Part shown: positions 28,296 through 54,876 of the stretch, piece by piece
How positions within the stretch are numbered: the stretch's first letter is position 1
Layout of the letters: each line of letters begins with the position of its first letter
Source of the DNA: Bacillota bacterium
GTDB lineage: Bacteria > Bacillota > Limnochordia > Darwinibacteriales > Darwinibacteriaceae
Assembly: GCA_012521335.1 (NCBI GenBank)
Contig: JAAYMM010000017.1
Coordinates: 1 to 60,862, forward strand
Direction: 5' to 3'
Length of the DNA stretch: 60,862 bases
Translations under genes and position numbers: made by a program
Notes under the pieces: model-generated
Databases searched by the model: none
What the model saw: only the letters and a program-made list of their open reading frames with translations
Told to the model about the DNA's origin: nothing

Positions 28296-30455
28296 CTAAG
28301 TACGATGGATGGCCTCAGTGATCAACTGGCGGACGAACAGAACCACCTGTTCGGTCAGGGCGATAAACAACAACCCCAAAAAGAGGGCGAAGGCCATGCC
28401 CAACAGGGTAGAAATGCAGGTGAAGATGGTCTTGCTAAAGTCATACTCATGGGTGACCATGGTGGCGCCTACTACCAAAAGCACAACGGCCCAGCCCAAC
28501 CCCAAGGACATGAGCATGTAATAGAAAGCTCCTTCTTCGGCGATGAGGAAGTTGCTGATCATGGTCAAGGGCACAACGGTCAGGATGACAGGAATGAGGG
28601 CAAAGGCACTGGCGATGTAGACATCCCGCAGCGTTCCCTTGCCTTCCATCAAGGTGGTCAGAGCCCAGTTGACAAAGGTCCAGAGCAGGAAGGGCAGCAC
28701 AACACTGCCGATCTCCACCAAGAGATTGATCTTACTCAGATCTGCCCTGTTGAAGATGAAGCCCGTGTACTGGCGAGCAAAGACAAAGGTAAGCACAACC
28801 AGGGCTAAGATAATGGTGGCGGCCAAGGGTGTCCCCCTCTGTTCTTTCTTCAACCTTTCGAAACCGTCAAAGGGATGGAAGATGATGTATAACCCGAAGC
28901 GCAGGCTGTTTAGCGTCTTTCGGCCAAACCGGGCCCACTTCGCCTGGGCTGCGGCTGCCTCCTGCGCCGCGGGCAGGCTGGGCCTGCCAGGCCTGAACCT
29001 GCGGAAGAGGAAAAACGCGGCGAGCAAAACCGCGCCTGAGGCGAAGGCTTGGGGGAAGTGGGCATAGACCAGTTCTTTTCGATACAGCTCGAACGCCTCA
29101 GAATACTCAGCACGGTTGTTGCCCAGCCTGAAGTTTTCCATAGCCTGGGCGTATTCGCCCCTTCTAAGCAGCGCCCGGCCGATGCCAGTGTAGGCCACAT
29201 CGAAGTTGGAGTTGAGCACCAGAAGCTGGCCCCAGATTCTTTCAGCCAGGTGGTAGTCGCCCCGCTCGTAAGCATCCAGGGCAGCCCAGATGAGGAGCGC
29301 ATAGTCGGTGGGCTCGAAAACCACGATACCTCCACGCTGGGCATCCAGGACAAGCATCGTTTTGCCCAGATGGTCCAGGGCCACGGGACTGGCCACCTGG
29401 CCGTGCCCTGAACCCCAGTAGCCAAAATCGTAAAGAAGGTTGCCGTTGTTGTCGTAGGTGAATACCCGCCCCCGATTGCCGTCGAGCACGCTATACACTC
29501 CGTAGGGTTGTACCGTGATATCCACCAACATGGAGGATGTGCGCCGGGTGGCTGTGGACCAGCGGTCGGGGAACTCCACATCACCCATGGGATCGGCAAA
29601 GCCCAATCGCCTCAGCAAGTCTTGGCCCTTGGCGTTAATTTTACGGACCTTGATGGCGATTCCGCCTTGATCTTCTTCCTTATCCTCAGCATGGCTGGTG
29701 GCGTAGATGAAACCCTCCGAGTCCAAATCGAAGTTGGTATACTCTGTGGGCAGAAAAGCCCGGATCCTCTGGCGCTGTTCCTTGGTGGCGAAGCGGCTCC
29801 ACAGGTATTCGGCCAAACTGGGCGTAACGCGGGGCGCGCCCAAAAAGCCGCGAAACTGACCGTCGGCACTAAAGCTGATGAATCCTTCGTATAAGTCTTG
29901 GGCGATCACATAAATCCGGCCGTGCTGATCCACGCCCACCTTCAGGGGCCGGTAGTTGAAATTGGCGGGAAGGATCCCCTCAAACTGTGCCTGGGGAGCA
30001 GGCACGATCCGGTTGAGAGTCCCGTCTGGATTGAGGTGTACAATGCGGCCGTTGCCCGTATCGGCAACGTAAATGTGGCCCTCGGGAGTGACAAAAAGGC
30101 CCATGGGAGAGTTGAAGCTGTCGTCATCGCCAAAACTGGAGATCACGCGCACCAGCTGGAAACTGCCATCGGCCACAACCAGGCGGTTGTTGCCCGTATC
30201 GGCGATATAAATCTCGCCCTGCGCGCTGACAAACAGGTCATTCGGATTCTTCAGCGGCCCCACCTGCAGATCGTCCCCCAGGATGATCCGAGACGGGAGA
30301 TAGGCCTGGGGGCTGGGTACCGCCTTCTGCCAGAAATCATACAAATAGCTGGTGTATGGAACAGTGAAGTTGGTAATTGAGGTGCCTTGGGCGTAAGCAG
30401 AGCAGCAAGCCGCCAGCACGGCCACCAGCACTGCACACACCTTGCGCCACATCAT
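28296..30455 (-). CDS. NHL-repeat / TPR / Yip1-domain membrane protein (719 aa)
   Basis: Signal peptide, repeated YIADTGNNR / YVADTGNGR (NHL), TPR-like helix pair (AYTGIGRALLRRGEYAQAM), C-terminal multi-TM Yip1-like domain (HPFDGFERLK...). Confidence 0.8.
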   Translation of the reverse strand: MMWRKVCAVLVAVLAACCSAYAQGTSITNFTVPYTSYLYDFWQKAVPSPQAYLPSRIILGDDLQVGPLKNPNDLFVSAQGEIYIADTGNNRLVVADGSFQLVRVISSFGDDDSFNSPMGLFVTPEGHIYVADTGNGRIVHLNPDGTLNRIVPAPQAQFEGILPANFNYRPLKVGVDQHGRIYVIAQDLYEGFISFSADGQFRGFLGAPRVTPSLAEYLWSRFATKEQRQRIRAFLPTEYTNFDLDSEGFIYATSHAEDKEEDQGGIAIKVRKINAKGQDLLRRLGFADPMGDVEFPDRWSTATRRTSSMLVDITVQPYGVYSVLDGNRGRVFTYDNNGNLLYDFGYWGSGHGQVASPVALDHLGKTMLVLDAQRGGIVVFEPTDYALLIWAALDAYERGDYHLAERIWGQLLVLNSNFDVAYTGIGRALLRRGEYAQAMENFRLGNNRAEYSEAFELYRKELVYAHFPQAFASGAVLLAAFFLFRRFRPGRPSLPAAQEAAAAQAKWARFGRKTLNSLRFGLYIIFHPFDGFERLKKEQRGTPLAATIILALVVLTFVFARQYTGFIFNRADLSKINLLVEIGSVVLPFLLWTFVNWALTTLMEGKGTLRDVYIASAFALIPVILTVVPLTMISNFLIAEEGAFYYMLMSLGLGWAVVLLVVGATMVTHEYDFSKTIFTCISTLLGMAFALFLGLLFIALTEQVVLFVRQLITEAIHRT

Positions 30456-41149: not shown

Positions 41150-43036
41150 TTACAGACTGGCCCTAAACGGCGAGGCAGGCAGGCCTTGGGCATTGTACAG
41201 GTTGGCTCCTTCGGGATTGTCGCGCCAGGCGTAGCGCACACCGCAGGGTTCAGGCACGGCAGTGCTCCACACCTTCACCGTCTCCCCATCAATCTGGGCC
41301 TGGGCCGGATGGAACACTCCGTCTGCGCCGCAGATCTCGAACCAGCGCAGTTCTCCGTCTTTGGCCACCAAGCCTCCCTCCGTGCCGGTAAAGTAGACCC
41401 GCAGGGCACCGTTATCCCGCTCCAGGCGTTCATAGAGGGGTCCCTGGAAAGGAACGGGCTCTCCAAAGATCATGTTGCGAGCGGCCCGGTGCAGCCGCAA
41501 GGCAATGTCCTTTTTGTTCTGGGGATGCAGATCGTTGGCTTCTCCCACATCAATGGTCACCGCCATGGCTGTGTTGGGAACAGTGAGTGTCTGCAGCTGG
41601 GCTTCCCTAACGAGAGCCCACCGCTCCGGATCATCATCTTCATAGGCAGACGTATCATAATTGGTCAGCTGCACGAAGAAGAAGGGCAGGTTGGGGTTTC
41701 CAAAGTGCTGGCGCCATTCTTCGATGAGCAGAGCAAAGCGCTGGTGGTAATGCTCTGGGTTGTGGGAGTTAGACTCGCCCTGGTACCACAGCACCCCGCG
41801 TACGGCACAGCCCCGCAAAGGAGCGATCATGGCGTTGAACATGCCGCTGGGTTTCTGATGCGGGCGCGTCATGTAGGGCAGAGCCTCCGCGGAGCAGCCG
41901 ATCTTGTACTTCCACTCCCCAGCAAGGTCAATGCACTTGTCGCCTATCTCCAAAACGTAACGCTTGCCAGGCACCAAGCCCCCTGTCTTCCTGACCACAA
42001 CCACGCGCACGGCAATGGTGTTAGTCCCCGGCCGCAGTACTCCCGCGGGCACGCGGTATTTGCGGGGCGGATATTTATAGCCTGTATTGCCCACAAGAAT
42101 ACCGTTGATGTAGGTGTCGTCGGCATCAAAGACGGCCCCTAGGCGCAGCAGAGCAGCGCGTCCGGCAAGCTCTGCGTCCAATTCCACCTCCCTGCGCAGC
42201 CAGACCACCCCGTGACAGTGCTCCAGTTCTGTACCTTTCCAGATCTGGGGCAGAGTGATCTTGGACCACTGGGAGTCATCCAGCTCGCAGCTGTACCAGG
42301 GAACTTCGCCCTGGCACCCTGGATCCCGGGCAGCCAGCTCCCGCAGCCACTGCTCGGCCTGTTCTTGTTCAGTCTGCAGAATACTCTCCATGTAACCAGG
42401 CTCTTTTAAGCGTGCCACTATGTCCTCAAAACCGCCCAGGGACTGGATGGTCTCTTCGCTGAGCCAGGCCTCCACGTGGCTGCCGCCCACAGCGGTGAGC
42501 ACCAGGCCTACGGGCACTCTGTACCTGGCGTAATGGGCTTGGGCGAAGAAATAGCCGAGGGCGCTGAACTCCAGAACTGTCTGGGGATTGACCTCCTGCC
42601 AAGTACCTCCGGGCAGGTCACGCTGCGGCCCTTGGAAGTTGTACGTGATGGGTACCCGAAATTGGCGGATCCAAGGATTTTCCACGGCCCGCACTTCTTC
42701 TCCGTACAGATCCAAGGTGCGGGCAATGGGCATCTCCATGTTGGACTGACCGCCCAAAAGGAACACATCACCGATGAGGATATCACGAATGACAAGCTTC
42801 CCGCTGGCCCCCTCGATCACAAGCTCAAAGGGCCCCCCCGCCTCTTGGGGCGGCAGTTCCAGCGTCCACGCGCCTTCAGCGTCGCTTTGACAGAAGTAGG
42901 CAGCACCTCTGAACCTCGCTTCTAGACGCTCGTTGGGACGGGCCTTGCCCCAGATGCGCAGGGGTACTTCGCGCTGCAGCACCATGCCGTCGGAAAAGAT
43001 GGGTGCCGCTTGCAGACTAAACTCCTCTTTGACCAA
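41150..43036 (-). CDS. Sialate O-acetylesterase-like SGNH carbohydrate esterase
   Basis: GGQSNM, WYQGESN, DLHPQNK; central beta-sandwich insertion. Confidence 0.88.
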   Translation of the reverse strand: MVKEEFSLQAAPIFSDGMVLQREVPLRIWGKARPNERLEARFRGAAYFCQSDAEGAWTLELPPQEAGGPFELVIEGASGKLVIRDILIGDVFLLGGQSNMEMPIARTLDLYGEEVRAVENPWIRQFRVPITYNFQGPQRDLPGGTWQEVNPQTVLEFSALGYFFAQAHYARYRVPVGLVLTAVGGSHVEAWLSEETIQSLGGFEDIVARLKEPGYMESILQTEQEQAEQWLRELAARDPGCQGEVPWYSCELDDSQWSKITLPQIWKGTELEHCHGVVWLRREVELDAELAGRAALLRLGAVFDADDTYINGILVGNTGYKYPPRKYRVPAGVLRPGTNTIAVRVVVVRKTGGLVPGKRYVLEIGDKCIDLAGEWKYKIGCSAEALPYMTRPHQKPSGMFNAMIAPLRGCAVRGVLWYQGESNSHNPEHYHQRFALLIEEWRQHFGNPNLPFFFVQLTNYDTSAYEDDDPERWALVREAQLQTLTVPNTAMAVTIDVGEANDLHPQNKKDIALRLHRAARNMIFGEPVPFQGPLYERLERDNGALRVYFTGTEGGLVAKDGELRWFEICGADGVFHPAQAQIDGETVKVWSTAVPEPCGVRYAWRDNPEGANLYNAQGLPASPFRASL

Positions 43037-43132
43037 TGCAACTCACCTTTCTTCGCCATGTTTGTCCCGGAGACAGAACGCCACCGGTTTCCTGGTGAAG
43101 AATTCCTCTCCCTTGAGGCTATTTCCTGCAGT

Positions 43133-43157
43133 AAAAAACCGCCCTGTTCCTGGGCGG
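43133..43157 (-). terminator. Intrinsic terminator after tlp
   Basis: Minus strand CCGCCC-7 nt-GGGCGG-TTTTTT. Confidence 0.75.
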
Positions 43158-43165
43158 CTTGCTCC

Positions 43166-43405
43166 TCACTCCTCCTGCCTCTGCTGGAAGGCATATTCAT
43201 CGCGGATTTCTTCCCGTTTGGCCTCTATAGCCTGCTCACGGCGGCGGTTTTTGGCTCGGATGGCCTCCTTCTGCTCTTCCGGCAGGTTCATCTGCAGAGT
43301 CTTGTGGGCTTCTTCCAGGTTTTCAATGGTGTTCACCACCTGCTCCCGGAGCTTCTCCACATTGTCACTGCGGTCGTCAGGTTTGGGCCCCTGTCGTTTG
43401 GTCAT
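43166..43405 (-). CDS. tlp: Small acid-soluble spore protein Tlp
   Basis: KPDDRSDNVEKL...NTIENLEEA...KNRRREQAIEAKREEIRDE; ATG 43405 after GAGAGGAG. Confidence 0.9.
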   Translation of the reverse strand: MTKRQGPKPDDRSDNVEKLREQVVNTIENLEEAHKTLQMNLPEEQKEAIRAKNRRREQAIEAKREEIRDEYAFQQRQEE

Positions 43406-43435
43406 GCTATCTCCTCTCTCCTTTTTGCTCCCTTC

Positions 43436-43465
43436 TAGCATGGCCTCGGCTCTCGATTTTTATCC
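43436..43465 (-). promoter_or_regulatory. sigmaG/sigmaF-type forespore promoter of tlp
   Basis: Minus strand GGATA-N18-CATGCTA. Confidence 0.7.
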
Positions 43466-43475
43466 GCTGTTCAGC

Positions 43476-43504
43476 TTGACAAAAGACCCCAAGACGCCTA
43501 CGCT
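43476..43504 (+). promoter_or_regulatory. Candidate sigmaA promoter for the patatin gene
   Basis: TTGACA-N17-TACGCT. Confidence 0.45.
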
Positions 43505-43578
43505 TTCACTATACGGTGCTCGCCAAAAAGAGCGCCCCAGATGCGAACTGATCTACTGCTGACATGTTCGCTTAGGAG

Positions 43579-45234
43579 TTGAGGTTGATGCATAGAAGAA
43601 AACTTGCCAGCGGCCTGCTTGTGGCAGTCCTGCTGCTGAGCTTGGCCTCCCCTGGCCTAGCCGCCGAGCAGACCAGGCCCACGGTCGCCCTGGTCCTGGG
43701 CGGAGGCGCCGCGCGGGGCTTCACCCACATAGGGCTGATCAAGGCCTTGGAAGAACACGGTATTCCCATCGACATGATCGTAGGCACCAGTATGGGCAGC
43801 ATCGTGGCTGGGCTCTACGCCGCCGGTTATTCCGTAAGCAACATGGAAGAGGTGGCTGTTCATCTGGATACCTCCAAGCTGTTTGACATCCCCTTCCCGC
43901 CCACCGGCGGCGTGGTCGACAGCACAGGCATTCAGCAGTTCCTGGATGTGCTCCTAGATGGGAAGACCTACGCGGAACTGCCCATCCCCTTCAAGTCGGT
44001 TGTAGTCAACCTGGGCACCGGCCGAGAACTGGCCTTGAGCGAAGGCAAGGTGAGTGTGGGAATCCAGGCCAGCATGTCCATTCCCGGTGTGTTTCCCCCG
44101 GTGCAGATCGGCGAGAACTACTACGTGGACGGAGGCCTGAAAAACCAAGTACCGGCCAACGTGGCCGCGGACATGGGAGCAGATGTGATCATCGCGGTAT
44201 CCCTGGAACCGGACTACGTGAACCCAGACTACAACAGGATAATGAACAACCTGCGCATGTCCTTAACCGCGATGATGGAAGGATACACCGAGATCAACAC
44301 GGCCATGGCCGACGTACTTATCGTGCCCGAGGTGGGGTTGGATTCCTCGTGGGAGTTCCAAAAAGCCGCCTATTTCATCCAACAAGGCTACCAGGCCGGC
44401 CTCAAGTACATGGAACAGATTAAGGCCGTGATCCTGGCCAAGGATCCCACCTTCCAGTTCCACCCCTATCGCCAGCCGGGCTTAAGTGCTGGTGAACTGA
44501 AGGCCATCGTGCAGAAGGCGGAGCGGCGCGTAGCTAACCTGCCCAAACGCTTCACCTTTAAGCCGGAACTCCAGTTCGACAGCGACTACAACTTCCCCAA
44601 AATCGGCTTCAAGTTCACCCACGGCCCCCTTTCCTGGTTTGGCATTGGTTACCGCTACGGTTTTGACCCGGACAACGGAGGCCACGAGCTGTTTGTGGAC
44701 TGGGGACGGGCCCAGTGGGGTTCCGTGGACCTTTTCCTGCGCAAAAGTGAAAACCGAGAACGGCCCACTTTCGGCGTATCGGTCACCGGTCCAAGATTTG
44801 ACAAGCTGATGCTGGAAGCAACCTGGGTCTCCCAGGGTGAACGGGCCTGGCAGGTAGCGGCCACCAACAGCAAACTGGTTGATTATTCCCGGGCTGTGGC
44901 AGGGCTTTCCCTCAAGGTGAGCGGCCTGCGGCGTGAAGAAGACCAACCCATTGAAGAGACGCTCCGCCTGGCCTTGGCTCCGCAGGTGCAGGTCTACCCC
45001 TGGGGCGATGAGCACTTCCCGGTGGGCTTTGCCCTGGTGCGTCCCTACCTGTTGGGCGGTGTAACGGTGGAAACCCCCGTTACGGAGCTGAACGTACAGC
45101 CCAGCCTGCGGGTGGGCATCGGCAGCGAACTGCACTTTTTCGGCCTCTACCCCACGGACATCTCCTTAGGGGTGGAGCTGGACAGCAGCGCCAAAGCTAC
45201 AGTGCACTTTGGCATCACCGGGCTTAAGTTCTGA
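43579..45234 (+). CDS. Patatin-like phospholipase with C-terminal beta-strand-rich domain
   Basis: Signal peptide, GGGAARG, GTSMG, DGG; C-terminal ~230 aa amphipathic strands ending in Phe. Alternative start ATG 43588. Confidence 0.88.
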   Translation: MRLMHRRKLASGLLVAVLLLSLASPGLAAEQTRPTVALVLGGGAARGFTHIGLIKALEEHGIPIDMIVGTSMGSIVAGLYAAGYSVSNMEEVAVHLDTSKLFDIPFPPTGGVVDSTGIQQFLDVLLDGKTYAELPIPFKSVVVNLGTGRELALSEGKVSVGIQASMSIPGVFPPVQIGENYYVDGGLKNQVPANVAADMGADVIIAVSLEPDYVNPDYNRIMNNLRMSLTAMMEGYTEINTAMADVLIVPEVGLDSSWEFQKAAYFIQQGYQAGLKYMEQIKAVILAKDPTFQFHPYRQPGLSAGELKAIVQKAERRVANLPKRFTFKPELQFDSDYNFPKIGFKFTHGPLSWFGIGYRYGFDPDNGGHELFVDWGRAQWGSVDLFLRKSENRERPTFGVSVTGPRFDKLMLEATWVSQGERAWQVAATNSKLVDYSRAVAGLSLKVSGLRREEDQPIEETLRLALAPQVQVYPWGDEHFPVGFALVRPYLLGGVTVETPVTELNVQPSLRVGIGSELHFFGLYPTDISLGVELDSSAKATVHFGITGLKF

Positions 45235-45266
45235 AAAGCACGGGCCTCAGTTGGCCCGTGCTTTTT
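45234..45266. terminator. Bidirectional terminator overlapping the eda stop
   Basis: AAAAGCACGGGCC-TCAGTT-GGCCCGTGCTTTT. Confidence 0.85.
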
Positions 45267-45894
45267 GCACTGCTTGCACGTATTGGCCGGCCAGCTCAGT
45301 GAGGGCTGGCCAGTCTTTTTTGGCCACAATGTCCTTGCTCACCAGGGCAGAACCAACGCCCACAAACACTGCTCCGGCCTTGAGGAAATCCCCCAGGTTG
45401 TCCAGGTTTACTCCGCCGGTGGGGGTGAGTTTCACCTGAGGCAGCGGGCCGCGCACATCTCGGAAGAACTCCGGCCCCAGTTTGGTGGCGGGGAAAACCT
45501 TAACAACATCGGCCCCGGCTTCCCAGGCTGTGAGTATTTCCGTGGGCGTGAACGCGCCAGGAATCACGATCTTGCCGTAGCGCTTGCACATGGCGATGAG
45601 TTCTTTGTTGAGAACCGGGGAGACGATGAAATCGGCCCCCGCCAGCATAGCCACCCGGGCCGTCTCGGGGTCTAATACCGAGCCGGCGCCGATGACCGCC
45701 TTACCTTTCAGCACCTGCGCAGCCCTGTAGATGGCTTCAGTGGCACCGGGGGAAGTCATGGTAATCTCCACCGCGATCACCCCGCCGGCCACCAAGGCTT
45801 CACAGATGGAGACCAGCTCATCTCCGCTCTGGGTGCGGATTACCGCCACGATTCCGCACTCTTCGATCCGCTTCAACTGCTCCTCCTTGGTCAT
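45247..45894 (-). CDS. eda: KDPG/KHG aldolase
   Basis: VAVIR, VEITMTSP, GAGSVLD, KVFPA, PTGGV; ATG 45894 has the best SD spacing. Confidence 0.93.
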   Translation of the reverse strand: MTKEEQLKRIEECGIVAVIRTQSGDELVSICEALVAGGVIAVEITMTSPGATEAIYRAAQVLKGKAVIGAGSVLDPETARVAMLAGADFIVSPVLNKELIAMCKRYGKIVIPGAFTPTEILTAWEAGADVVKVFPATKLGPEFFRDVRGPLPQVKLTPTGGVNLDNLGDFLKAGAVFVGVGSALVSKDIVAKKDWPALTELAGQYVQAVQKARAN

Positions 45895-46012
45895 GTGCAA
45901 AACCTCCCGTACTATGGCTTACAACACTCCGCTGTCTTCCTTAGGTTTTTCTCCACTGCTACCCGGCAAATCCTGCCCTGGCGGCAGCAGGTGGCATTTT
46001 TTCCCGAGAATG

Positions 46013-46047
46013 GGAAAGCCGGAAGTGGCGGCTTCTTCCGGCTTTCC
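46013..46047. other. 13-bp hairpin downstream of the MMPL operon
   Basis: GGAAAGCCGGAAG-9 nt-CTTCCGGCTTTCC, no U-tract. Confidence 0.6.
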
Positions 46048-46060
46048 TGAACACTTGCGG

Positions 46061-47335
46061 CTAGAACTGATACTTAAAGGCCAGCCTAGCCTGGGTGGGA
46101 ATATGCTTGAAACCTCCCTTGTCTCCGAAGGGCTGCAGCAGGCTCAGCTCCAGCTGGACGCCCTGCGCCAAGCGGTGGGTATAGGATGGGCGGATAATAC
46201 CCGCCTCTTCTTTGGTCCCATACAGGACTACCAAGGCGGCGCTGCTGTCGGGGTTGAAGTCATAGGACAAGCGCCCGTACAAGTAGTGGGCCCCCTCAAT
46301 ATCGCCCGCCTGCGGCGGTGCATCGGGCAGCAGTTTGGGTGCTGTATACGGGGCCAACAGCGCTCCCTGGCCTCTGTACACGTATTGGGCCTGCACCAAG
46401 AGCCCGTTGCCCACGTTAATGGTATAGTCTCCGCCCACAACGGCCTGGAAGTACTTTTCGTTTATGGACATGGGGATGCGGAGTTCCAGAGGATTGTCAG
46501 ACTCGGCAAACGGCTGCGGGCCTCCGTAGGCCGCCTCAGCCCAGAACCCGGCCTGCCCCAACGTACCGGCCAGAGCTAGTCCGAAGAGGTGCTGGCGGCG
46601 GTATGTGCCTTCAATCTTCGGGTTCGGCTGAGCGGTCAGATCCAATACCATCTCTAAGCCGGGCAGAGGTTCGTAGCCCCAGAAGTAGCTGGCCTGCAGG
46701 TCAAAGCCGGCGAGTTGGGTCTCCAATCGGAGAGCCACTTCGGGATTGCCCAAACCGGGCTTTTTGGTGTCTTTGATGGCCTGCAGCACCAGGGCTCCTT
46801 GAGGATCTGCTCCCAGCAGCATCTGCTCCATGAGCTCGTCGATTTCCTGGGGGGCAAACACGGGGATGAGCACCCCCGTGGCCGACCACGCAGGCGCGTA
46901 ATACTCCACCCTGCCGGCCCACACCGGGTCGCCGCTGAGTTCACCGCTGAACAGAGAACTGCTGCTCAAGCGGGCAAAGTAATTGGTGGGGTTAAAGCCA
47001 TCGGCGGTGCCCCAGCTGATCAGCTGGCGGCCAATTTGGTAGTCGAAGTCGCCGGAGTAGCCTTTCAGCCACACTTGGTCCACCGCGATGCTTGCATCCT
47101 TGAGCTTCCAGTCCAGCCAGCCCTTGGTGGAGAAATGCAGTTTGCCCAGCTTATCCAGCTCATCTTCCACCGCGACCCTAAAGCCGGTGCGGAAGGATGT
47201 GAGCTCTCCTGTTTTTTCATCACGGTCCCAGTCATAGCTGATACTGCCGTACAGCTCCCCCGTTGGCGTCACCGCCCAGGCCGGCAGAGCGCAGAACAGG
47301 ACAAGGATGGCTGTCAAAATGTACACGCGTTTCAC
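46061..47335 (-). CDS. Probable outer-membrane beta-barrel protein (uncharacterised)
   Basis: Sec signal, GRQLISWGTADGFNP (porin-like motif), alternating amphipathic strands, C-terminus RLAFKYQF. Confidence 0.65.
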   Translation of the reverse strand: MKRVYILTAILVLFCALPAWAVTPTGELYGSISYDWDRDEKTGELTSFRTGFRVAVEDELDKLGKLHFSTKGWLDWKLKDASIAVDQVWLKGYSGDFDYQIGRQLISWGTADGFNPTNYFARLSSSSLFSGELSGDPVWAGRVEYYAPAWSATGVLIPVFAPQEIDELMEQMLLGADPQGALVLQAIKDTKKPGLGNPEVALRLETQLAGFDLQASYFWGYEPLPGLEMVLDLTAQPNPKIEGTYRRQHLFGLALAGTLGQAGFWAEAAYGGPQPFAESDNPLELRIPMSINEKYFQAVVGGDYTINVGNGLLVQAQYVYRGQGALLAPYTAPKLLPDAPPQAGDIEGAHYLYGRLSYDFNPDSSAALVVLYGTKEEAGIIRPSYTHRLAQGVQLELSLLQPFGDKGGFKHIPTQARLAFKYQF

Positions 47336-47365
47336 AGTAGTCACCCTCCTCTATGGCTCTCCATG

Positions 47366-48136
47366 CTAACGGCGCAGATTACGCAGGGTAAAGATCTCGG
47401 CATCCACTTCTTCCTGGCTCACCGCTGCCAGTTCCAAGATAGTGCGCGTGCCTTGGGCGTTGTTAGCCATGATCACATGATGCGGTATGAGCTCACCGGC
47501 AACAGGTTTAAAATCGCTCAAAGTAAGGGTTTTGCTCAGCGCATCACCGGAAGTGTAGAACTCAATCTTCACCGGTACCATCTGTTCCTTCCAAACCCAC
47601 ATGCGCACCTTGTGGTAGGGAGCCTCGGAGCCCTTCGCGGTCAGTTCCAGCACGTAGCAGTCTACTCCCTGTTCCGCCTGGTCCTGGAGGCGCTGCACCG
47701 CATAGTTATCTTCGTAGTCGAAGTTGCCGCCGATCTCATCATAGGTGAAGTCTGTACCCATGAACGAATCGCCGGTCATGTGCGCTGCAATCCTCCGTTC
47801 CCTGCCCAAGGCGGGCATGTAGAGCCACATCTGGCTTTCGCCATCCTTGGGGTTCAGGGAGAGGAACTTGGTCCCCCGCACATCGGCGGGAGCTAAGTAC
47901 TCCAAGAACTGGGCATCTCCCTCATCATCCATTTTCACATAAACCCGCAGGGAGTAGCTGCGCTGCGCACCCTTCGCGTTTTCAGTGATCATAGTCAGTT
48001 CGGCACTGCCAGAACCACTTAAGATGGTGCGGAAGCTCAGCTCATCTAGAATTTCCTGGCCGGTCGGGCTCTGGGCGCAGACTGTTGAGCTTACGGCCAG
48101 CAGAAGCGTCAGAGCAAGCAAGAACACCCTTTTCAT
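47366..48136 (-). CDS. Outer-membrane lipoprotein-sorting (LolA-like) protein
   Basis: Signal peptide, PADVRGTKFL, WLYMPALGRERRI, FMGTDFTYDEI. Confidence 0.85.
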   Translation of the reverse strand: MKRVFLLALTLLLAVSSTVCAQSPTGQEILDELSFRTILSGSGSAELTMITENAKGAQRSYSLRVYVKMDDEGDAQFLEYLAPADVRGTKFLSLNPKDGESQMWLYMPALGRERRIAAHMTGDSFMGTDFTYDEIGGNFDYEDNYAVQRLQDQAEQGVDCYVLELTAKGSEAPYHKVRMWVWKEQMVPVKIEFYTSGDALSKTLTLSDFKPVAGELIPHHVIMANNAQGTRTILELAAVSQEEVDAEIFTLRNLRR

Positions 48137-48140
48137 CTCT

Positions 48141-50426
48141 TTACCCCTTTCTGAGTTGCCTTTGCGCAGAATAGTTCAATAAGAGCGGAATCACCAAAAG
48201 CGCCGCTAGGGAGCTGACGATCATGGCTGCGGAAATGAGCAGCCCGAACACCGCGATGGCGCGGAAGTGGGAGAACACCAAGACCAAGAACCCCACAACC
48301 AGTGCCAAGGCATTGTAGATGATCGCCCGGCCTGCTGATCTGCTGGTCAGGCGCAGCGCGACGGCACTGTCCTGTCCGCGTTCCAACTCCCAGCGATAGC
48401 GGCTGATATAGTGAACGGCATAATCCACACCGATGCCGATGGCCACACTGGAGATCATGCTGGTCACCGCATCGAGGGGCAGGCCCGCAAAACCCATGAT
48501 CCCAAAGTTGACCACAACGGTGAAGATCAGGGGGATCATGCTGAACAGCCCCAAGGACACAGACCTCATGAGGAGGCTCACGATCACGCCAACCATGATA
48601 CTGGAGCTTATCAGGCTGGAGACCTGAGTCTGCACATAGCGGTTCATCAGGCGCTGCATCACTTTCGGCGTACCGGAGAGATGCGCCTTCAGCTTGGAAC
48701 TGCCATTGTAGCGGGTGGCCAGGAAGTTTTCCACCTCACCGATCACATGAGCCATCTGCTCCGCATCCAGCGTCTTCATCTGGGCAGTAACGAGAGCCTT
48801 GCTGTAATCATAAGTCACCAGGGAATCGATGCCAGAACCGCCCTGCATAGTAAAGAGGAGCAGCTGCTGCGCTACGGCTTCCCTGCTGTCAGGAATGGTG
48901 TAAGCTTGCGGATCACCATCCCACAGCGCCTGGTTGAGCTCTCGGATCACGTCCGCTATAGATGTGGCGTGGTTGATGGTGTCCCAAGAGTCTAGGTATT
49001 CCTGGATGGCCACCAGCTCCTGGAGTACCTCAGGGTCTTTGACGCCATCCTCTTCACCTGTATCCAGCACCACTGAAATCTGCATGCTTCCGCCAAATAC
49101 TTCCTCGATGACCGTTGTGGCCTGGCGCACCGGGCTGGAAGCCCCAAAGTAGTTGACGATGTTGCTCTCCAGCGTAATCAACCCAGCGCCCAGAGCAAAC
49201 ACTACCAACAGAACCACAACCACGGCGGTGAGCTGTTTGGGGCGAGCCACGGCCCAGGTGACAAAAGCCTGGAGGAGGCAGCTGAGCGGCCCCTCCTTTT
49301 CTGGCGTATCCTCGGCGAGGCGCACTCGCGGCTCTCTAACCAGAATCAAAAGAGCGGGCACAAGGCTCAAAGACAGAGCCATGGCCAGCATCACGCCGAT
49401 GGCGGTGAGCACCCCGAATTCGCGGATGGGATGCACAAAAGCGGTGATCAGCGAAGCAAAGCCGGCTGCTGTAGTCAGGGCTGCCATGGCCACAGGGGAG
49501 GTAATGGCTGCAAAGGTTTCCTCCAGGGCTTCCCTTTTGGCCAGGCCCCGGGCCAGCCCTTCTTGATACTTGTTCAAAATGTGGATGCTGGAGGCGATGC
49601 CGATGGTGACAAGAATCACGGGCATCACCATGGAAATCATGGAAACGGGAATGCCCCGCCAGATCATGAGCCCCACGGTCCAGATCACGCTCATGCCCAC
49701 TGTGACCAAGGGTATGATGATGCCCAGCACCGAACGCAGAGTAGCGTAGAGCACAGCCCCAATAATCACCACTACGAAGGGCACCAGTTTGACCAGGTCT
49801 TCTTTCATGGCTTGTTCAGTGTAGTAGAGGATATAGGCATCGCCCACCACATGGATCTGTTCGGGCCCACGGTATCCTTCCACGATGGCTTCAACTTGCG
49901 CCATGAGCTCGTTGCGTTCCGGCCCCATTACCAGACTGTCCAGCTCTAGGAACAAGGCAGCACCCCGTCCGTCCAGAGTAACCAGACGGCCGGCATAGGG
50001 GCTGCCGAGAATGTCCGCCTTGAACTGGGCAATGGTCTCAGGGCTCTGGGGCAGTTCTGAGGTCATTGGCGCGATCTCGATGCCGAAAAAGCCGCTTTCC
50101 ACCTTTTGGGCGTTAAAGGGGCTCTGCACCTCCACCACACCTGGCAGCGCCGCCAACGCCGCTGCTAGATCATGAATCTTGCGCAGAGTAGCTGGGCTGA
50201 ACACATCCTCGCCCTGCACTGCGATGAGAAACAGGTCCTGGGTGCCGAAGTCTTCGACCACTTCCATCAGTTCCACCAGAACCGGGTCGTCTTCAGGGAT
50301 CATGGCATCGATACTGGCGTTGAAGGTGATGTGGGGCAGAAGGCTGCCGGAAATAACGGTGATCAGCACCGCAACAGCGATCACCGCCCAAGGATGATCC
50401 AAAACTAGCTTGAACCAGCGCTGCAA
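48141..50426 (-). CDS. MMPL/RND-family transporter
   Basis: Two-fold repeat of TM1 + large periplasmic loop + 5 TM; GIGVDYAVH in the second repeat. Confidence 0.9.
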   Translation of the reverse strand: MQRWFKLVLDHPWAVIAVAVLITVISGSLLPHITFNASIDAMIPEDDPVLVELMEVVEDFGTQDLFLIAVQGEDVFSPATLRKIHDLAAALAALPGVVEVQSPFNAQKVESGFFGIEIAPMTSELPQSPETIAQFKADILGSPYAGRLVTLDGRGAALFLELDSLVMGPERNELMAQVEAIVEGYRGPEQIHVVGDAYILYYTEQAMKEDLVKLVPFVVVIIGAVLYATLRSVLGIIIPLVTVGMSVIWTVGLMIWRGIPVSMISMVMPVILVTIGIASSIHILNKYQEGLARGLAKREALEETFAAITSPVAMAALTTAAGFASLITAFVHPIREFGVLTAIGVMLAMALSLSLVPALLILVREPRVRLAEDTPEKEGPLSCLLQAFVTWAVARPKQLTAVVVVLLVVFALGAGLITLESNIVNYFGASSPVRQATTVIEEVFGGSMQISVVLDTGEEDGVKDPEVLQELVAIQEYLDSWDTINHATSIADVIRELNQALWDGDPQAYTIPDSREAVAQQLLLFTMQGGSGIDSLVTYDYSKALVTAQMKTLDAEQMAHVIGEVENFLATRYNGSSKLKAHLSGTPKVMQRLMNRYVQTQVSSLISSSIMVGVIVSLLMRSVSLGLFSMIPLIFTVVVNFGIMGFAGLPLDAVTSMISSVAIGIGVDYAVHYISRYRWELERGQDSAVALRLTSRSAGRAIIYNALALVVGFLVLVFSHFRAIAVFGLLISAAMIVSSLAALLVIPLLLNYSAQRQLRKG

Positions 50427-50431
50427 TTAGT

Positions 50432-51007
50432 TCACCTCTTTCTGAGCCGAAAGACCATGTTCAGTGCTTCGAAGCTGAGATAGGCGGTTTCTTTGGGCTC
50501 GAGCAGAATCTGCACGGCAATGCCGAAGATGCCCCCTAAGAACAATCCCGATAAGACTTCTGGCGAATAGGTATAGCCCAGCTCTTCCAACAAATCCCCC
50601 GTGAAAACCTCGGTGGCAAATAAGTTGATGATCACCTGGAAAATCTCCCGCACCTGCTCCCGCAGGGGTTCCGAGCGCAGAGCCAGCCCCACCAGATCGT
50701 AAAGCACCCTAAAGAGTTCTGGCTCTTTGGTGAGGATCTCCTGGTAGAGCCTGAGGAAGCACTCACCTTTTTCCCAGGGGGTCATGTCAGGCTGCAGCTC
50801 CTGCACAAACTCAGAGTAGCGGTCGGCCACCCTGCGCCCTACAGCCAGCAGCAGCCCTTCTTTGTTCTGGAAATGATAGCTGATTTGGCTGAGGGCCACT
50901 TGGGCCTCTTCGGCGATCTGGCGCAACGACGTTTGAGCGTAGCCTTCCCGGGCGATCACGTTGTAGGCTGCATCGAGAATTTTTTCCTCCTGCGATTTTT
51001 CCAGCAC
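50432..51007 (-). CDS. TetR/AcrR-family regulator
   Basis: ILDAAYNVIAREGYAQTSLRQIAEEAQVALSQISYHFQNKEGL. Confidence 0.92.
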   Translation of the reverse strand: MLEKSQEEKILDAAYNVIAREGYAQTSLRQIAEEAQVALSQISYHFQNKEGLLLAVGRRVADRYSEFVQELQPDMTPWEKGECFLRLYQEILTKEPELFRVLYDLVGLALRSEPLREQVREIFQVIINLFATEVFTGDLLEELGYTYSPEVLSGLFLGGIFGIAVQILLEPKETAYLSFEALNMVFRLRKR

Positions 51008-51022
51008 TAGCTCACCCCTTCC

Positions 51023-51062
51023 TTCGATCGGACGACCGTTCGAAGAAACTAATCATATTATA
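51023..51062 (-). promoter_or_regulatory. -10 box and candidate TetR operator
   Basis: TATAAT on the minus strand (51062-51057); imperfect 22-bp palindrome TTCGATCGGACGACCGTTCGAA (51023-51044). Confidence 0.55.
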
Positions 51063-51147
51063 GCGCTTCTTGGCGCAAAATGCTACGGGTGCCAGAAAAA
51101 AGGATCAGCTCCCCGACAGAGCGAAACTAGGGGCAGGAGGTGAGTGT

Positions 51148-51654
51148 GTGTACGACTTCTTCATCGGCATCCGCCTGCCCAAGAAACTGGAGGAGACCTG
51201 TGAACACTACCGGCGGGCCTTTCGTGCTCCCCGCACCCCTGCCCATATTACCGTTATCGCTCCTTTCGCCTGGGAGCAGAGCACGGAAGAACTGCACGAA
51301 CTGCTGCGCAGGGCAGTGGAGCCTATTTCCCCCTTTCAGGTTCGCGGTACGGGCTTGGGTTCCTTTGGCACCAGGGTCCTGTTTGTGAACGTAACCCTCA
51401 GTGATGAGCTGCGCGAACTTCACCGCGCACTCGCAGACAGCCTCAGGCAGGCCGGCGTACAAGTGGAGCGACGGCCCTATCATCCCCACATTACCCTGGC
51501 GACTAGGCTGAGCCCGCCCCAATTTGCCCGGTACAAAAAAGAACTGGAAGGCTTCTCCCCCAGTTACGCTTTTCCCTGTGAAGCAATCAGCTTATTTGAG
51601 TTCACCGCGGAGAGGAGATGGCTGGAACAGACGGAATTTGCCCTCAGAGGCTGA
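51148..51654 (+). CDS. 2H phosphoesterase (2'-5' RNA ligase family)
   Basis: Two HxT motifs, PAHITV and PHITL; GTG 51148 after AGGAGG. Confidence 0.88.
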   Translation: MYDFFIGIRLPKKLEETCEHYRRAFRAPRTPAHITVIAPFAWEQSTEELHELLRRAVEPISPFQVRGTGLGSFGTRVLFVNVTLSDELRELHRALADSLRQAGVQVERRPYHPHITLATRLSPPQFARYKKELEGFSPSYAFPCEAISLFEFTAERRWLEQTEFALRG

Positions 51655-51664
51655 ATCCATAACC

Positions 51665-51693
51665 TTGTCTTTACATTGATCATCTGATATTAT
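51665..51693 (+). promoter_or_regulatory. Candidate sigmaA promoter for fprA
   Basis: TTGTCT-N17-TATTAT with TG extension. Confidence 0.5.
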
Positions 51694-51720
51694 CTCCCTA
51701 AAAGGAAAAGGGGTGTTTCT

Positions 51721-52914
51721 GTGAATACTGCGAAAAAGCTGACTGACAAAGTCACCTGGGTCGGCAAAGTAGATTGGGAACTGCAGACCTTTCACGGCCA
51801 TGAGTATTCCACCCGCAGGGGTTCTTCGTACAACTCTTACCTCATCCGCGATGAGAAAAATGTGCTGATCGACACGGTCTGGCTCCCTTACGACCGGGAG
51901 TTTGTGGAACATCTCCGCTCCGAAATAGATCTGCACGAAATCGACTACATTATCATCCAACACGCGGAAATCGACCACAGCGGCGCCCTGCTGGAGCTGA
52001 TGAGGGAGATCCCCGATACACCCATTTACTGCACCAAGAATGGGGAGCGCATCCTCAAGGGCCACTTCCACGAGGATTGGAACATCGTCACCGTCAAAAC
52101 CGGTGATACCCTAGACATTGGCCAGTCCAAACTCGTTTTCGTGGAAGCCCCTATGCTGCACTGGCCCGATACCATGTTCACTTACATGACCGGCGAGAAC
52201 ATCCTTTTCAGCAACGATGCCTTCGGGCAGCACTACGCCACCGAGTCGTTGTACAACGATGCCGCAGATCAGTGTGAACTGTTCGCGGAGGCCATGAAAT
52301 ACTACGCCAACATCCTCACCCCGTTCAGCGCTTTGGTGAAAAAGAAGATCAACGAGGTCCTGGCCATGGATCTGCAGGTTGATCTGATCTGCACCAGCCA
52401 CGGCGTGATCTGGAGGGACAACCCGGCCCAGATTATCCACAAGTACCTGGAGTGGGCCGACGACTACCAGGAGAACCAGATCACCATCGTCTACGACACC
52501 ATGTGGAACTCCACCAGGCTCATGGCTGAAGCGATCGCCACAGGCATTCAGGCCGCGGATCCGGAAGTAACCATCAAGGTGCTCAATGCGGCGAAGTACG
52601 ACAAAAACGACATTGTGACTGAGATTTTTAAGTCAAAAGCAATTTTGGCCGGCTCATCCACCGTGAACAACCGCTACCTGTCCGCCATGGGCGGGCTGCT
52701 GGAGATGGTCAAGGGCATGAAGTTCAAAAAGAAAAAAGCCGCAGCTTTCGGCAGCTACGGCTGGAGCGGCGAGGCGGTGAAGCTGCTCACGGAAGATCTC
52801 ACTACGGCCGGCTTCGAAGTCGTGAATGACGGCTGCAGAGTCCAGTGGGTGCCAGATGAGGCAGCCCTCCAGGCATGCCAGGAGTTCGGGCGCAGCTTCG
52901 CGCGCAGCATCTAG
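51721..52914 (+). CDS. fprA: Class A flavodiiron protein (O2/NO reductase)
   Basis: [23 protein letters not shown]; C-terminal flavodoxin ([17 protein letters not shown]). Confidence 0.93.
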
Positions 52915-52935
52915 ACGTTTCCGAACCCAGTGTAG

Positions 52936-52963
52936 AACCGCAGGCTCAGTGCCTGCGGTTTTT
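52936..52963. terminator. Intrinsic terminator between fprA and the MCP gene
   Basis: AACCGCAGGC-TCAGT-GCCTGCGGTTTTT. Confidence 0.82.
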
Positions 52964-54876
52964 CACATCTGAGGTTCCAATTCAAACCGGGCGGCCAGCG
53001 CCCTCAGTTCTTCCACCATCGTCTCTACTGAAGCGGAAACATCCACCACTTCTGCGATGGAACTCTTCTGGCGCTCCGTGGCCGCGGAGATCTCACCGCT
53101 GCCCCTGGCCAGTTCTTCCGTGGCCCGGGCCACATCCTCAAAGCTGGCCACCGTCTGGCGGATGGTGGCGGCGATGGAGTTGAAGGCCTGGCGCGTTTCG
53201 GCCAAGGCGTGCACACCTCGATTCACTTCCCGGTCGTTGGCGGCACTGGTCTGCACCGCATATTCCGCCTGCTGCATCACCAGGCTCATGGTAGCCCGTA
53301 CATCGCCTACCAGCGCCTGGGTCTGCTCTGCCAGCTTGCGCACCTCTTGGGCCACTACGGCAAAGCCTCGCCCTTCGTGTCCCGCCCGGGCCGCTTCAAT
53401 GGCCGCGTTCAAAGCCAGCAGATTGGTCTGCTCGGCAATATCCGCAATGGAATCGAGCATCTCCCCAATGCGGGCGGTTTCCTGCTTCAAGGCTTCGATA
53501 GCCTGTACCGCTTCTTTGGCTGTGGTGTTGATGCTGTTCATCACCTGCTCCATCAGGCCGATCTGCCCCATGCCCCGCTCTGTGAGGACCAATGACTCGC
53601 CGGCCTCCGCACTCATTTTGGTGGCGTGGGCACTGGACTGCTGAGCTGTAGTGGCAAACTGCACGGCCGTAGACGCCACCTGGGCCAGGGCGGTAGAGTT
53701 ATCCTCGGCGATGTTGGTTAGTGTCTGCACGTCCCGGGAGATGGCGGCAATGGCTCCATGCACTCCCCGCACCATCTCTTCCAGCGTGGCCAGCATGGCA
53801 TTGTAGCACTTGGCCATCTGCCCCAGCTCATCCCGGCGGGGCAGGTGCACAGGCTGGCCCAGCTTGCCTTGGGACACCAAGCTGAGCTGCGCGGCCATGA
53901 GTTTCACCGGCCGGGAGACACTGCCGGCCATATACGTGGCCACGACAAACACGGCCACCAGAAACAGGCCAAAGGCCAGCAGAGAGAAGTTCCTCAAGGC
54001 ATTGGCCCGGGCTAAGATAGCATCTAAAGGCAGGCTGATGGCCAGCGTCCAGGAAGAGGCGCCGGGAACGGGCTGGAAAAAGGCTAGGGTTGGCGTACCA
54101 TCGGGCCCGGTGATCCGAGCACTCCCTCCCTCACCCTGGGCTGCCCTTGCTCCCAGCTCGGCCAGCCCAGCATAGCCTGCCCCATCGCTGCGCACATTTA
54201 AGGCCAGCTCCAGATCACTTTGGGGATGGGCGATCACTAGTCCCGACTGGTCCACAAGCCAGCCGTAGCCCTGCTGGCCAACGGAAGAAGCCACGGCCAG
54301 TTCCCGCAGGGGGGCAAAGGGTACGGTCAGCCCTAAAAGCCCCACCTTTTCCCCTTTATCGTTGCGCACCTCATGGGCCACTTGGAAGACCACTTCTCCC
54401 TCGGGGTTCACAAAGGGTGCGCCCACGGCCGCCTTACGATCTGCCACCATGATGGCCTGGAAGAATTCACTGTCCTCGGCCTGCTCCATGGTCACCCCGT
54501 CACCCGCGTAGAGGGTGCCCATGGTGTCCACAAAGAAGACATTATGGAATCCAGCGCGCAAGCTGCGCTGGCGTGTCGCGATATCACTGCGCACGAGGCT
54601 CTGGTAATGGGTGAAGCGATTGGCGTCCAGAGTCTGCATATCAACCATGTACCCGCCGAAAAACTGCTTAGAGATGACTTCCGCCTCACGGATGTACTCC
54701 TGGAGGCGGGTATCAATCTGGACTGCCCTGTTGGAGACAACCTCCCCGATCATCTCCTCAGTCATGGGCAGGATGGTGTTTTGAATCCGGTTGGTGAACA
54801 CGTAAGCAAAAATCATCAGCAAAATGGCTACTGGGATGGAAAAGGCCAAGACCATTTTGGCTCTGAATGATTTCAC
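52963..54876 (-). CDS. Methyl-accepting chemotaxis protein (Cache sensor, HAMP)
   Basis: Two TMs, Cache-like region ([16 protein letters not shown]), HAMP (RRDELGQM), signalling hairpin [20 protein letters not shown]. Confidence 0.94.

Follow-up and report, generated by a model that had tools for sequence, protein, structure and literature searches.

The passage of hydrophobic molecules through the periplasm is still poorly understood for bacteria devoid of Lol and Mla carriers, and hypotheses on the origin of the outer membrane turn largely on diderm Firmicutes. In this context, a four-gene operon on the minus strand (46061-51007) of a 60,862-nucleotide (nt) stretch of DNA from a Bacillota bacterium (Limnochordia; Darwinibacteriales; Darwinibacteriaceae; GCA_012521335.1, contig JAAYMM010000017.1), hereafter the window, meaning the whole stretch that was analysed, raises the question of what it transports, and across which membranes. 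The operon encodes a TetR-family repressor, a resistance-nodulation-division (RND) pump, a secreted LolA-like protein and an outer-membrane beta-barrel, and an earlier reading made from the letters alone (the sequence-only reading) had proposed it as a putative lipid pathway of a Firmicute. We consider it rather probable that the operon is a TetR-repressed, three-component exporter of a hydrophobic compound spanning both membranes of this diderm Firmicute. Moreover, the compact RND/LolA-like/barrel cassette of Limnochordia was found to be widespread in other two-membrane phyla.

The four open reading frames (ORFs) are co-oriented in the order TetR, RND pump, LolA-like protein and barrel, with intergenic gaps of 5, 4 and 30 nt when the barrel start is taken as GTG 47335. 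The sequence-only reading had claimed four same-strand genes with gaps of 5, 4 and about 30 nt, coding for an MMPL/RND protein, a signal-bearing LolA-like protein, a barrel-like protein ending in YQF and a TetR accompanied by a palindrome, and the sequence bears out this layout with all of its parts. The mechanical ORF of the barrel gene covers 46061-47344; nevertheless, its real start is almost certainly GTG 47335, as had been assumed, because the ribosome-binding site AGGAGG (47345..47350, minus strand, read from the sequence) abuts the GTG at 47344 and stands 9 nt before the one at 47335, and because a 99%-identical database protein, P0001, has 424 amino acids (aa).

Structure prediction of the 46061-47335 protein, named beforehand as one of two tests that could refute the proposal, returned a barrel: the AlphaFold2 model, built on a 51-sequence alignment, has a predicted local distance difference test score (pLDDT) of 91.3 and a predicted TM-score (pTM) of 0.84, with a signal helix and 21 beta-strand segments. 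The protein ends in KYQF, and an aromatic residue, mostly Phe, closes almost every orthologue; a C-terminal aromatic is the usual signal for BAM-dependent barrel insertion. The most conserved element of the barrel is an invariant loop motif, WGTADGFNPTN, at residues 108-118. In Foldseek searches against the PDB, the 18-stranded alginate channel AlgE was the top match (E 1e-10, TM-score ~0.55), followed by OmpM1, porins and OccAB (0.52), and the same nearest folds with similar scores were reported for DUF1302, described as 18-stranded and with no solved structure (PMC13499233). An outer-membrane barrel is plausible in this Firmicute, because Limnochordia possess a true outer membrane according to electron microscopy and genomic markers (PMC11456536). 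In fact, the nearest homologues of the barrel protein all come from Limnochordia/Bacillota metagenome-assembled genomes (MAGs), and a gene for the small acid-soluble spore protein Tlp (43166-43441, minus strand; PF19824, E 5e-25), an endospore marker in an outer-membrane organism, lies 2.6 kb from the last gene of the operon, so that the earlier label of Firmicute holds for the host.

At the family level, this barrel (46061..47335, minus strand, 424 aa) can be placed as a short and divergent member of the DUF1302 superfamily, on the basis of the model, the Foldseek matches and PF06980 matches among its relatives. Single-sequence Pfam and NCBIfam scans of the window protein gave no match, whereas PF06980 was matched by 25/51 aligned homologues (best E 2.6e-12) and by 8/10 relatives sampled from the profile search, six of these ten scoring above the 23.2-bit cut-off. 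That search retrieved 7,483 cluster representatives at E<=0.001, of which 3,457 reach E<=1e-10 and 420 reach E<=1e-30, and most of the 150 matches listed have 400-480 aa. Family-level matches, counts and sizes thus indicate a large and poorly annotated 'short DUF1302' branch. One 953-aa protein of the profile search (P0330) carries PKD, He_PIG and Big_2 domains fused to a C-terminal DUF1302-like barrel, a fusion which suggests that some members of the DUF1302 family display surface domains.

The protein encoded between pump and barrel (47366..48136, minus strand, 256 aa) is a secreted soluble member of the LolA superfamily, matching PF17131 (LolA_like / TP_0789-like) with E 1.4e-53 and 181.8 bits against a cut-off of 30, and in part PF07044 (DUF1329) with 36 bits against a cut-off of 23.1 (E 5.6e-9). 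Its solved relatives are 9TP6 (LolA3 of Porphyromonas gingivalis, E 3e-28), 3BK5 (8e-28), 4Z48 and 3BUU. The idea that a Bacteroidales cassette protein (locus L044) is markedly nearer to 9TP6 than the window protein was rejected, the values being 7e-31 and 3e-28. N-terminal signal peptides with cleavage sites of the AxA type (AWA/V and VCA/Q) are present on both the barrel and the LolA-like protein. The signal of the LolA-like protein is of the signal-peptidase-I type, with no conserved lipobox cysteine, and since Cys20 is unconserved in the orthologues, the protein is predicted to be soluble in the periplasm and no lipoprotein.

The pump (48141..50426, minus strand, 761 aa) is an RND permease of the MMPL/HAE3 type (PF03176, E 2e-49; TIGR00921, E 1.3e-87), in which PF03176 (MMPL) matches two stretches with 168.8 bits (cut-off 20.5) and sterol-sensing and Patched models match too. 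Hydropathy clusters at residues 7-33, 211-363, 399-417 and 625-746 fit a plan of 1+5 / 1+5 helices with two periplasmic loops. The nearest solved sequences are HpnN, MmpL3 and MmpL4 (E 1e-12 to 1e-10), which share the twelve helices, the two periplasmic loops and the proposed lifting of a hydrophobic cargo out of the inner membrane and into the periplasm; however, the homology is distant and confined to the transmembrane bundles, and HpnN works with no operon-encoded periplasmic or outer-membrane partners (PMC6394551). An Asp-Tyr pair is found in each of transmembrane helices 4 and 10 (TM4 and TM10) of MmpL3, whereas the window protein has Ser-Ser-Ile-His in TM4 (GIASSIH, residues 276-282) and Asp-Tyr only in TM10 (GIGVDYAVH, 664-672, with GIGVDY at 664-669). 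The sequence-only reading had singled out this difference between GIASSIH and GIGVDY; the motifs are there, but they are no anomaly. His282 (TM4), Asp668 and His672 (TM10) are invariant in 40/40 orthologues and position 669 is Tyr in 36/40 and Asp in 4/40, and since TM4 lacks an Asp throughout the orthologues, the pattern belongs to this RND subfamily as such and suggests that the TM10 Asp/His and the TM4 His form a proton path.

Regarding regulation, the first gene (50432..51007, minus strand) codes for a 191-aa TetR-family repressor whose N-terminal helix-turn-helix domain matches PF00440 (E 1.7e-14). Alignment of 17 orthologous upstream regions gave a mean column identity of 52% with two conserved islands, TATAAT and TTCGAACGGTCGTCCGAT. 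The former is the -10 box (51057..51062, minus strand), invariant in 17/17 regions with diverged flanks, and the latter is near-invariant and lies ~12 nt downstream of it. A -35-like hexamer, TAGCAT, was read from the sequence 17 nt upstream of the -10 box (51080..51085, minus strand); it is TGGCAT in most orthologues and semi-conserved in the alignment. A putative TetR operator (51019..51048, minus strand), an imperfect palindrome with the core TTCGAACGGTCGTCCGATCGAA, occupies about +2 to +31 of the transcript, after the -10 box and before the ribosome-binding site of the TetR gene. The palindrome announced by the earlier reading near this promoter is real: a repeat search resolved two 13-nt arms (51019-51031 and 51036-51048), 85% complementary and separated by a 4-nt spacer. 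Each of 20/20 loci has exactly one copy of the 15-nt core, invariably located upstream of the TetR gene, and the window has a single copy where 0.05 are expected; no second copy was found in the window with <=3 mismatches allowed, nor in any of the 20 orthologous loci. We infer that TetR binds this conserved palindrome, whose overlap with the predicted transcription start is the classic position of a repressor site. An Rfam scan of 45800-51300 gave sub-threshold chance matches only, and the conserved 5' element is therefore not a known RNA.

On the other side of this promoter, a divergent gene for a LigT-like 2'-5' RNA ligase (51070-51654, plus strand) has a mechanical ORF that starts at TTG 51070 and overruns the operon promoter. 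The orthologues have 168 aa, for which reason the gene probably starts near 51148, leaving a shared divergent intergenic region of ~140 nt.

The sequence-only reading had named a lack of joint conservation as its other refuting outcome, but the genes do occur together, far beyond the Limnochordia. In a scan of one genome per GTDB species (49 loci; gene neighbours identified by tblastn and hidden Markov model, HMM, searches), RND, LolA-like and barrel genes were adjacent and co-oriented in almost every locus with enough flanking sequence (~50 loci, at least six phyla), usually in the order RND, LolA-like, barrel, with little space between them and often with overlapping stop and start codons. 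Barrel identities were 28-78% in Limnochordia and other Bacillota MAGs, 30% in Spirochaetota and 23-30% in Bacteroidales, WOR-3 and Acidobacteriota, and the cassette is also present in Deltaproteobacteria, Myxococcota and Desulfobacterales. It is consequently not specific to Firmicutes. Two metagenome contigs (L005, L006) carry the same set amid unrelated flanks, and near-identical copies of the window locus turn up in metagenomes from manure, anaerobic digesters, compost and biogas. The cassette is headed by a TetR gene in the close set from Limnochordia, as well as in L006, L031, L043, L047, L049 and L058, the distant TetR-led loci including three from Deltaproteobacteria/Myxococcota and that of Porphyromonas. 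As exceptions, the order is reversed in L045 and L048, and the RND gene is divergently oriented in L055 and L056. Recurrence in ~50 independent loci, together with a single operator core against 0.05 expected, therefore indicates more than chance.

Some occurrences deserve mention in their own right. A paralogous barrel (43% identity) is encoded in L003 (7562-9257) and L004 (5276-6971) with no RND or LolA-like gene; the only ORF before it, of 140 aa and without a Pfam match, perhaps encodes a minimal partner, and ~6.5 kb away stands a patatin gene. Furthermore, the cassette appeared on a 1.8-kb contig binned as Natronincola sp. (L021) and in two loci labelled Clostridiaceae (L020, L022), lineages generally expected to be single-membraned. 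These contigs are short fragments of MAGs, so that a binning error or an automatically assigned name is a likelier explanation than an outer-membrane barrel in a single-membrane host.

What such a cassette does is best approached through its relatives, as the Limnochordia operon is no new kind of system but belongs to a family of cassettes that has already surfaced in published work. In Castellaniella defragrans, AmeABCD consists of the DUF1302 outer-membrane protein AmeA (605 aa), the DUF1329 protein AmeB (451 aa), a COG4447 BNR protein and an HAE3 RND permease, and its deletion lowers monoterpene tolerance and increases Nile Red accumulation, with normal growth on acetate (PMC6394551). Genes for DUF1302, DUF1329, BNR and RND proteins are cofit in Shewanella, Kangiella and Pseudomonas, where the 'export of a cell wall component' was proposed (10.1101/072470). 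Cofitness also joins these four families in P. putida on fatty esters, DUF1302/DUF1329 mutants being unfit on fatty esters and Tween 20 (10.1101/2020.07.04.188060). Both here and in the AmeABCD and Pseudomonas-Shewanella clusters, genes for an RND pump of the HAE3 type, a LolA-superfamily protein of the periplasm and a DUF1302 barrel stand together, and for clusters of the AmeABCD type an export across both membranes with neither membrane-fusion protein nor TolC has been proposed (PMC6394551; 10.1101/072470). The differences are those of size, order and regulator: the window barrel has 424 aa against the 605 of AmeA and the LolA-like protein is a 256-aa PF17131 member against the 451-aa DUF1329 protein AmeB, the gene order is reversed, with RND first, and TetR leads the operon whereas a LuxR-type regulator is reported for the Pseudomonas DUF1302/DUF1329/BNR/RND clusters. 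By analogy, the window cassette appears to be a compact relative of AmeABCD that would work like the Ame system while standing outside that subtype. AupA/AupB of Marinobacter, considered as further DUF1302/DUF1329 proteins, were dropped, as the paper describes AupA as FadL-like.

A second relative is found in Porphyromonas. The exact 9TP6 sequence was located on a P. gingivalis contig (L057), between an MMPL gene and one further gene, that of a short DUF1302 barrel, and the same contig contains exact matches to the published quantitative reverse-transcription PCR primers of PG1180, PG1179 and PG1178 (PMC11018363), which identifies PG1179, on sequence grounds, as the crystallised LolA3 (9TP6, PGN0947). 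The P. macacae locus (L058:2883-12556) encodes TetR and MMPL, then, as two insertions, a methyltransferase and a 136-aa ORF, followed by a PF17131 protein, a PF06980-positive barrel of 411 aa and two ABC proteins, and HMMs of the window orthologues recognise the Porphyromonas proteins with E values of 7.6e-148 (RND), 3.6e-70 (LolA-like), 3.1e-33 (barrel) and 7e-13 (TetR). Loci of this PG1181-PG1178 type share with the window the same four gene types in the same order on one strand, and their LolA-like proteins are 32-34% identical to the window's. They differ in two extra ABC exporter genes downstream in the Bacteroidota versions (PMC10434189) and in a TM10 motif of VDD where the window has VDY; the TM4 motif pattern was searched for in both Porphyromonas RND proteins and not found, and the Limnochordia operator sequence is lineage-specific. 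PG1178-81 are described as one transcription unit, with PG1181 up 84-fold under nitric oxide (NO) stress, and a mutant of the unit has been made and studied (PMC11018363); the genes rise 13- to 136-fold under iron limitation (PMC10434189), are among those most repressed by excess haemin (PMC10470040) and have been termed an 'uncharacterized transport system' (PMC13096392). Such conditional expression is as expected for a repressor-controlled exporter. The signature Arg and Leu are missing from LolA3, which does not pair with LolB and still awaits a functional assignment (PMC13103446), and neither of two LolA3 reports (PMC13103446, PMC11885536) mentions its gene context or a link between LolA3, MMPL and DUF1302. 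Three literatures, i.e., the AmeABCD and DUF1302-DUF1329 clusters, the PG1178-81 unit and the LolA3 structure, can thus be joined as one family with one architecture, in which the link to MMPL and DUF1302 suggests a role for LolA3 and P. gingivalis offers a tractable genetic model.

Taken with these relatives, the exporter reading can be laid out as a path. TetR would bind the palindrome overlapping the transcription start and let go of the DNA once an inducer binds, which is probably the cargo itself or a hydrophobic molecule akin to it. The RND pump would use the proton gradient, likely through the invariant Asp668/His672 (TM10) and His282 (TM4), and draw a small molecule of hydrophobic or amphiphilic nature out of the inner membrane into its periplasmic domains. 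There, the LolA-fold protein would take the cargo into its hydrophobic groove and shield it, acting as a shuttle or, more likely, as an adaptor docked under the barrel, a role favoured because AlphaFold-Multimer gives the DUF1302-DUF1329 complex an interface predicted TM-score (ipTM) of 0.84 (PMC13499233). Finally, the DUF1302-type barrel would let the cargo into or across the outer membrane. This architecture resembles AcrAB-TolC-type systems (HAE1; AcrR, TtgR) in its local TetR with an operator at the promoter and in proton-driven RND export over two membranes; however, no membrane-fusion protein or TolC-family channel is encoded in the operon or its flanks, and the RND protein is of the small MMPL/HAE3 type. 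The sequence-only reading had proposed a pathway from inner membrane through periplasm to outer membrane, and the RND pump, the LolA fold, the modelled barrel and the TetR agree with it. Its choice of lipid as cargo finds no such support, since the relatives point to monoterpenes and Nile Red, to fatty esters or a 'cell-wall component', or to haem and iron limitation and NO.

Several points weigh against the exporter reading. The cargo, the direction of transport and the contacts between the proteins are conjectural, here as in all close homologues. The TIGR00921 (HAE3) score of the pump is 294.5 bits, under the trusted cut-off of 351.9 although still the top NCBIfam subfamily, so that the protein is best called HAE3-like and no certified HAE3 member. 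Taken alone, the window barrel reaches no Pfam threshold (PF06980 without a match at E<=1), no COG4447/BNR (Ycf48-like) gene lies in or beside the operon, unlike in AmeABCD, and the paralogous barrel of L003 and L004 stands with no RND gene. In F. johnsoniae, loss of lolA3 by deletion produced no phenotype in the assays that were applied (PMC11885536), and regulation in P. gingivalis points to haem, iron and NO rather than to solvents. The sole RNA run containing the locus (X11, labelled metatranscriptome) was rejected as expression evidence: coverage is flat at ~100-160x over 43000-53000 and its contigs are of genome-like length (14-65 kb), a pattern like DNA carry-over and therefore uninformative on co-transcription and operon structure.

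Among the alternatives, the one that survives best, although we regard it as unlikely, is that the operon builds the envelope, moving a lipid of the cell's own (phospholipid, hopanoid-like or other) from the inner to the outer membrane in place of Lol- or Mla-type carriers, with a nearby patatin serving the same homeostasis. HpnN and MmpL3, the nearest solved relatives of the pump, do move envelope lipids, the export of a cell wall component was the proposal of Price et al. (10.1101/072470), and Lol is absent from Terrabacteria while Mla components occur in only few Limnochordia (PMC10665443). A dedicated repressor with a conserved operator, however, argues for conditional rather than housekeeping expression, the P. 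gingivalis unit varies ~100-fold by condition and a mutant of it exists (PMC11018363), and the normal growth of the ameABCD mutant on acetate points the same way (PMC6394551).

The patatin gene itself (43579..45234, plus strand) encodes a secreted patatin-like phospholipase with a C-terminal beta-barrel. In its model (pLDDT 86), the patatin domain is followed by a barrel at about residues 323-543 (~220 aa), and the domain is nearest to the PlpD passenger domain (5FYA; 37% identity, TM-score 0.85 on the target), with the GTSMG and DGG motifs of the catalytic Ser-Asp dyad intact; compared with PlpD, it has a shorter barrel and no detected POTRA domain. The 'patatin-barrel' label of the earlier reading is correct. 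In ~17 Limnochordia loci the gene is the immediate convergent neighbour of the barrel gene, and together with the intact dyad and PlpD-like fold this synteny speaks for the envelope-lipid alternative; an aldolase gene lies between the two in this window and in a few other loci. Nevertheless, the patatin gene lies on the other strand without any copy of the operator, and it is missing from the cassette loci of distant lineages, so that the functional link that had been put forward is unsupported beyond synteny within one class, and is possible at most. In one further locus (L015:8313-10209) the patatin homologue matches in three separate pieces and may be a pseudogene or the product of frameshifts in the MAG assembly.

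More speculatively, and in our view with little likelihood, MMPL, LolA3-like and short DUF1302 proteins could form an ancient hydrophobic route, independent of Lol and Mla and common to Terrabacteria and Gracilicutes, which in diderm Firmicutes supplies or remodels outer-membrane lipids together with the patatin. If true, this would give the orphan structure LolA3 (9TP6) its function.

Transport in the opposite direction appears improbable. On that account, barrel and LolA-like protein would capture a hydrophobic nutrient (fatty acids or esters, haem, porphyrin) and the RND protein would be the acceptor in the inner membrane. Co-induction of the P. gingivalis unit with the hmu haem-uptake genes under haem or iron limitation (PMC10434189, PMC10470040, PMC13096392) agrees with uptake, as do the poor fitness of P. 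putida DUF1302/DUF1329 mutants on fatty esters and Tween 20 (10.1101/2020.07.04.188060), the likeness of the barrel to substrate-specific channels such as OccAB and the lipid-rich habitats of manure, digesters and compost. The operon, however, has no cytoplasmic importer or catabolic genes. To our knowledge, the characterised RND/MMPL pumps export from membrane or periplasm, and RND operons led by TetR are typically efflux systems. Moreover, the sole characterised relative of the cassette behaves as an exporter (PMC6394551).

A true Lol-like sorting of lipoproteins to the Firmicute outer membrane by the LolA-like protein is very improbable. The protein shares the LolA-superfamily fold and, as in LolCDE-LolA-LolB, would present a hydrophobic groove between an inner-membrane extractor and an outer-membrane acceptor; among the true-LolA models, however, the sole match is a weak one to LolA1_Flavo, with 24.9 bits against a cut-off of 100. 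Here the extractor encoded next to it is an RND pump and not the LolCDE ABC transporter, the acceptor is a barrel and not LolB, and the protein belongs to PF17131 and not to the LolA family. In addition, LolA3, the nearest solved relative, does not bind LolB and is without the signature Arg and Leu (PMC13103446), and its deletion leaves lipoprotein-dependent traits unaffected (PMC11885536). That there is no system at all, with four unrelated neighbours and a barrel that is a general porin, is scarcely credible: the paralogous barrel of L003/L004 does occur with neither RND nor LolA-like gene, but the trio is adjacent in nearly all of the ~50 loci in at least six phyla, amid unrelated flanks and often with overlapping stop and start codons.

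With respect to the remaining features of the window, a stem-loop follows the last stop codon of the operon (46013..46047, minus strand; arms 46013-46025 and 46035-46047, a perfect 13-bp stem with a 9-nt loop, found by repeat search and in the sequence). It is likely the end of the transcription unit, with a poor T-tract. A simple promoter and terminator scan called neither this hairpin, which has no T-run, nor the conserved promoter, and was not used as evidence. Further away, the window carries xylan- and sugar-degradation genes, and also a polysaccharide-degradation cluster (13408-37408) with a GH67 alpha-glucuronidase, GH3, GH2 and DUF5696 proteins, within which we also observed an unusually long solute-binding-protein ORF (1012 aa) and, at 28296-30455, an NHL-repeat/Yip1 fusion protein.

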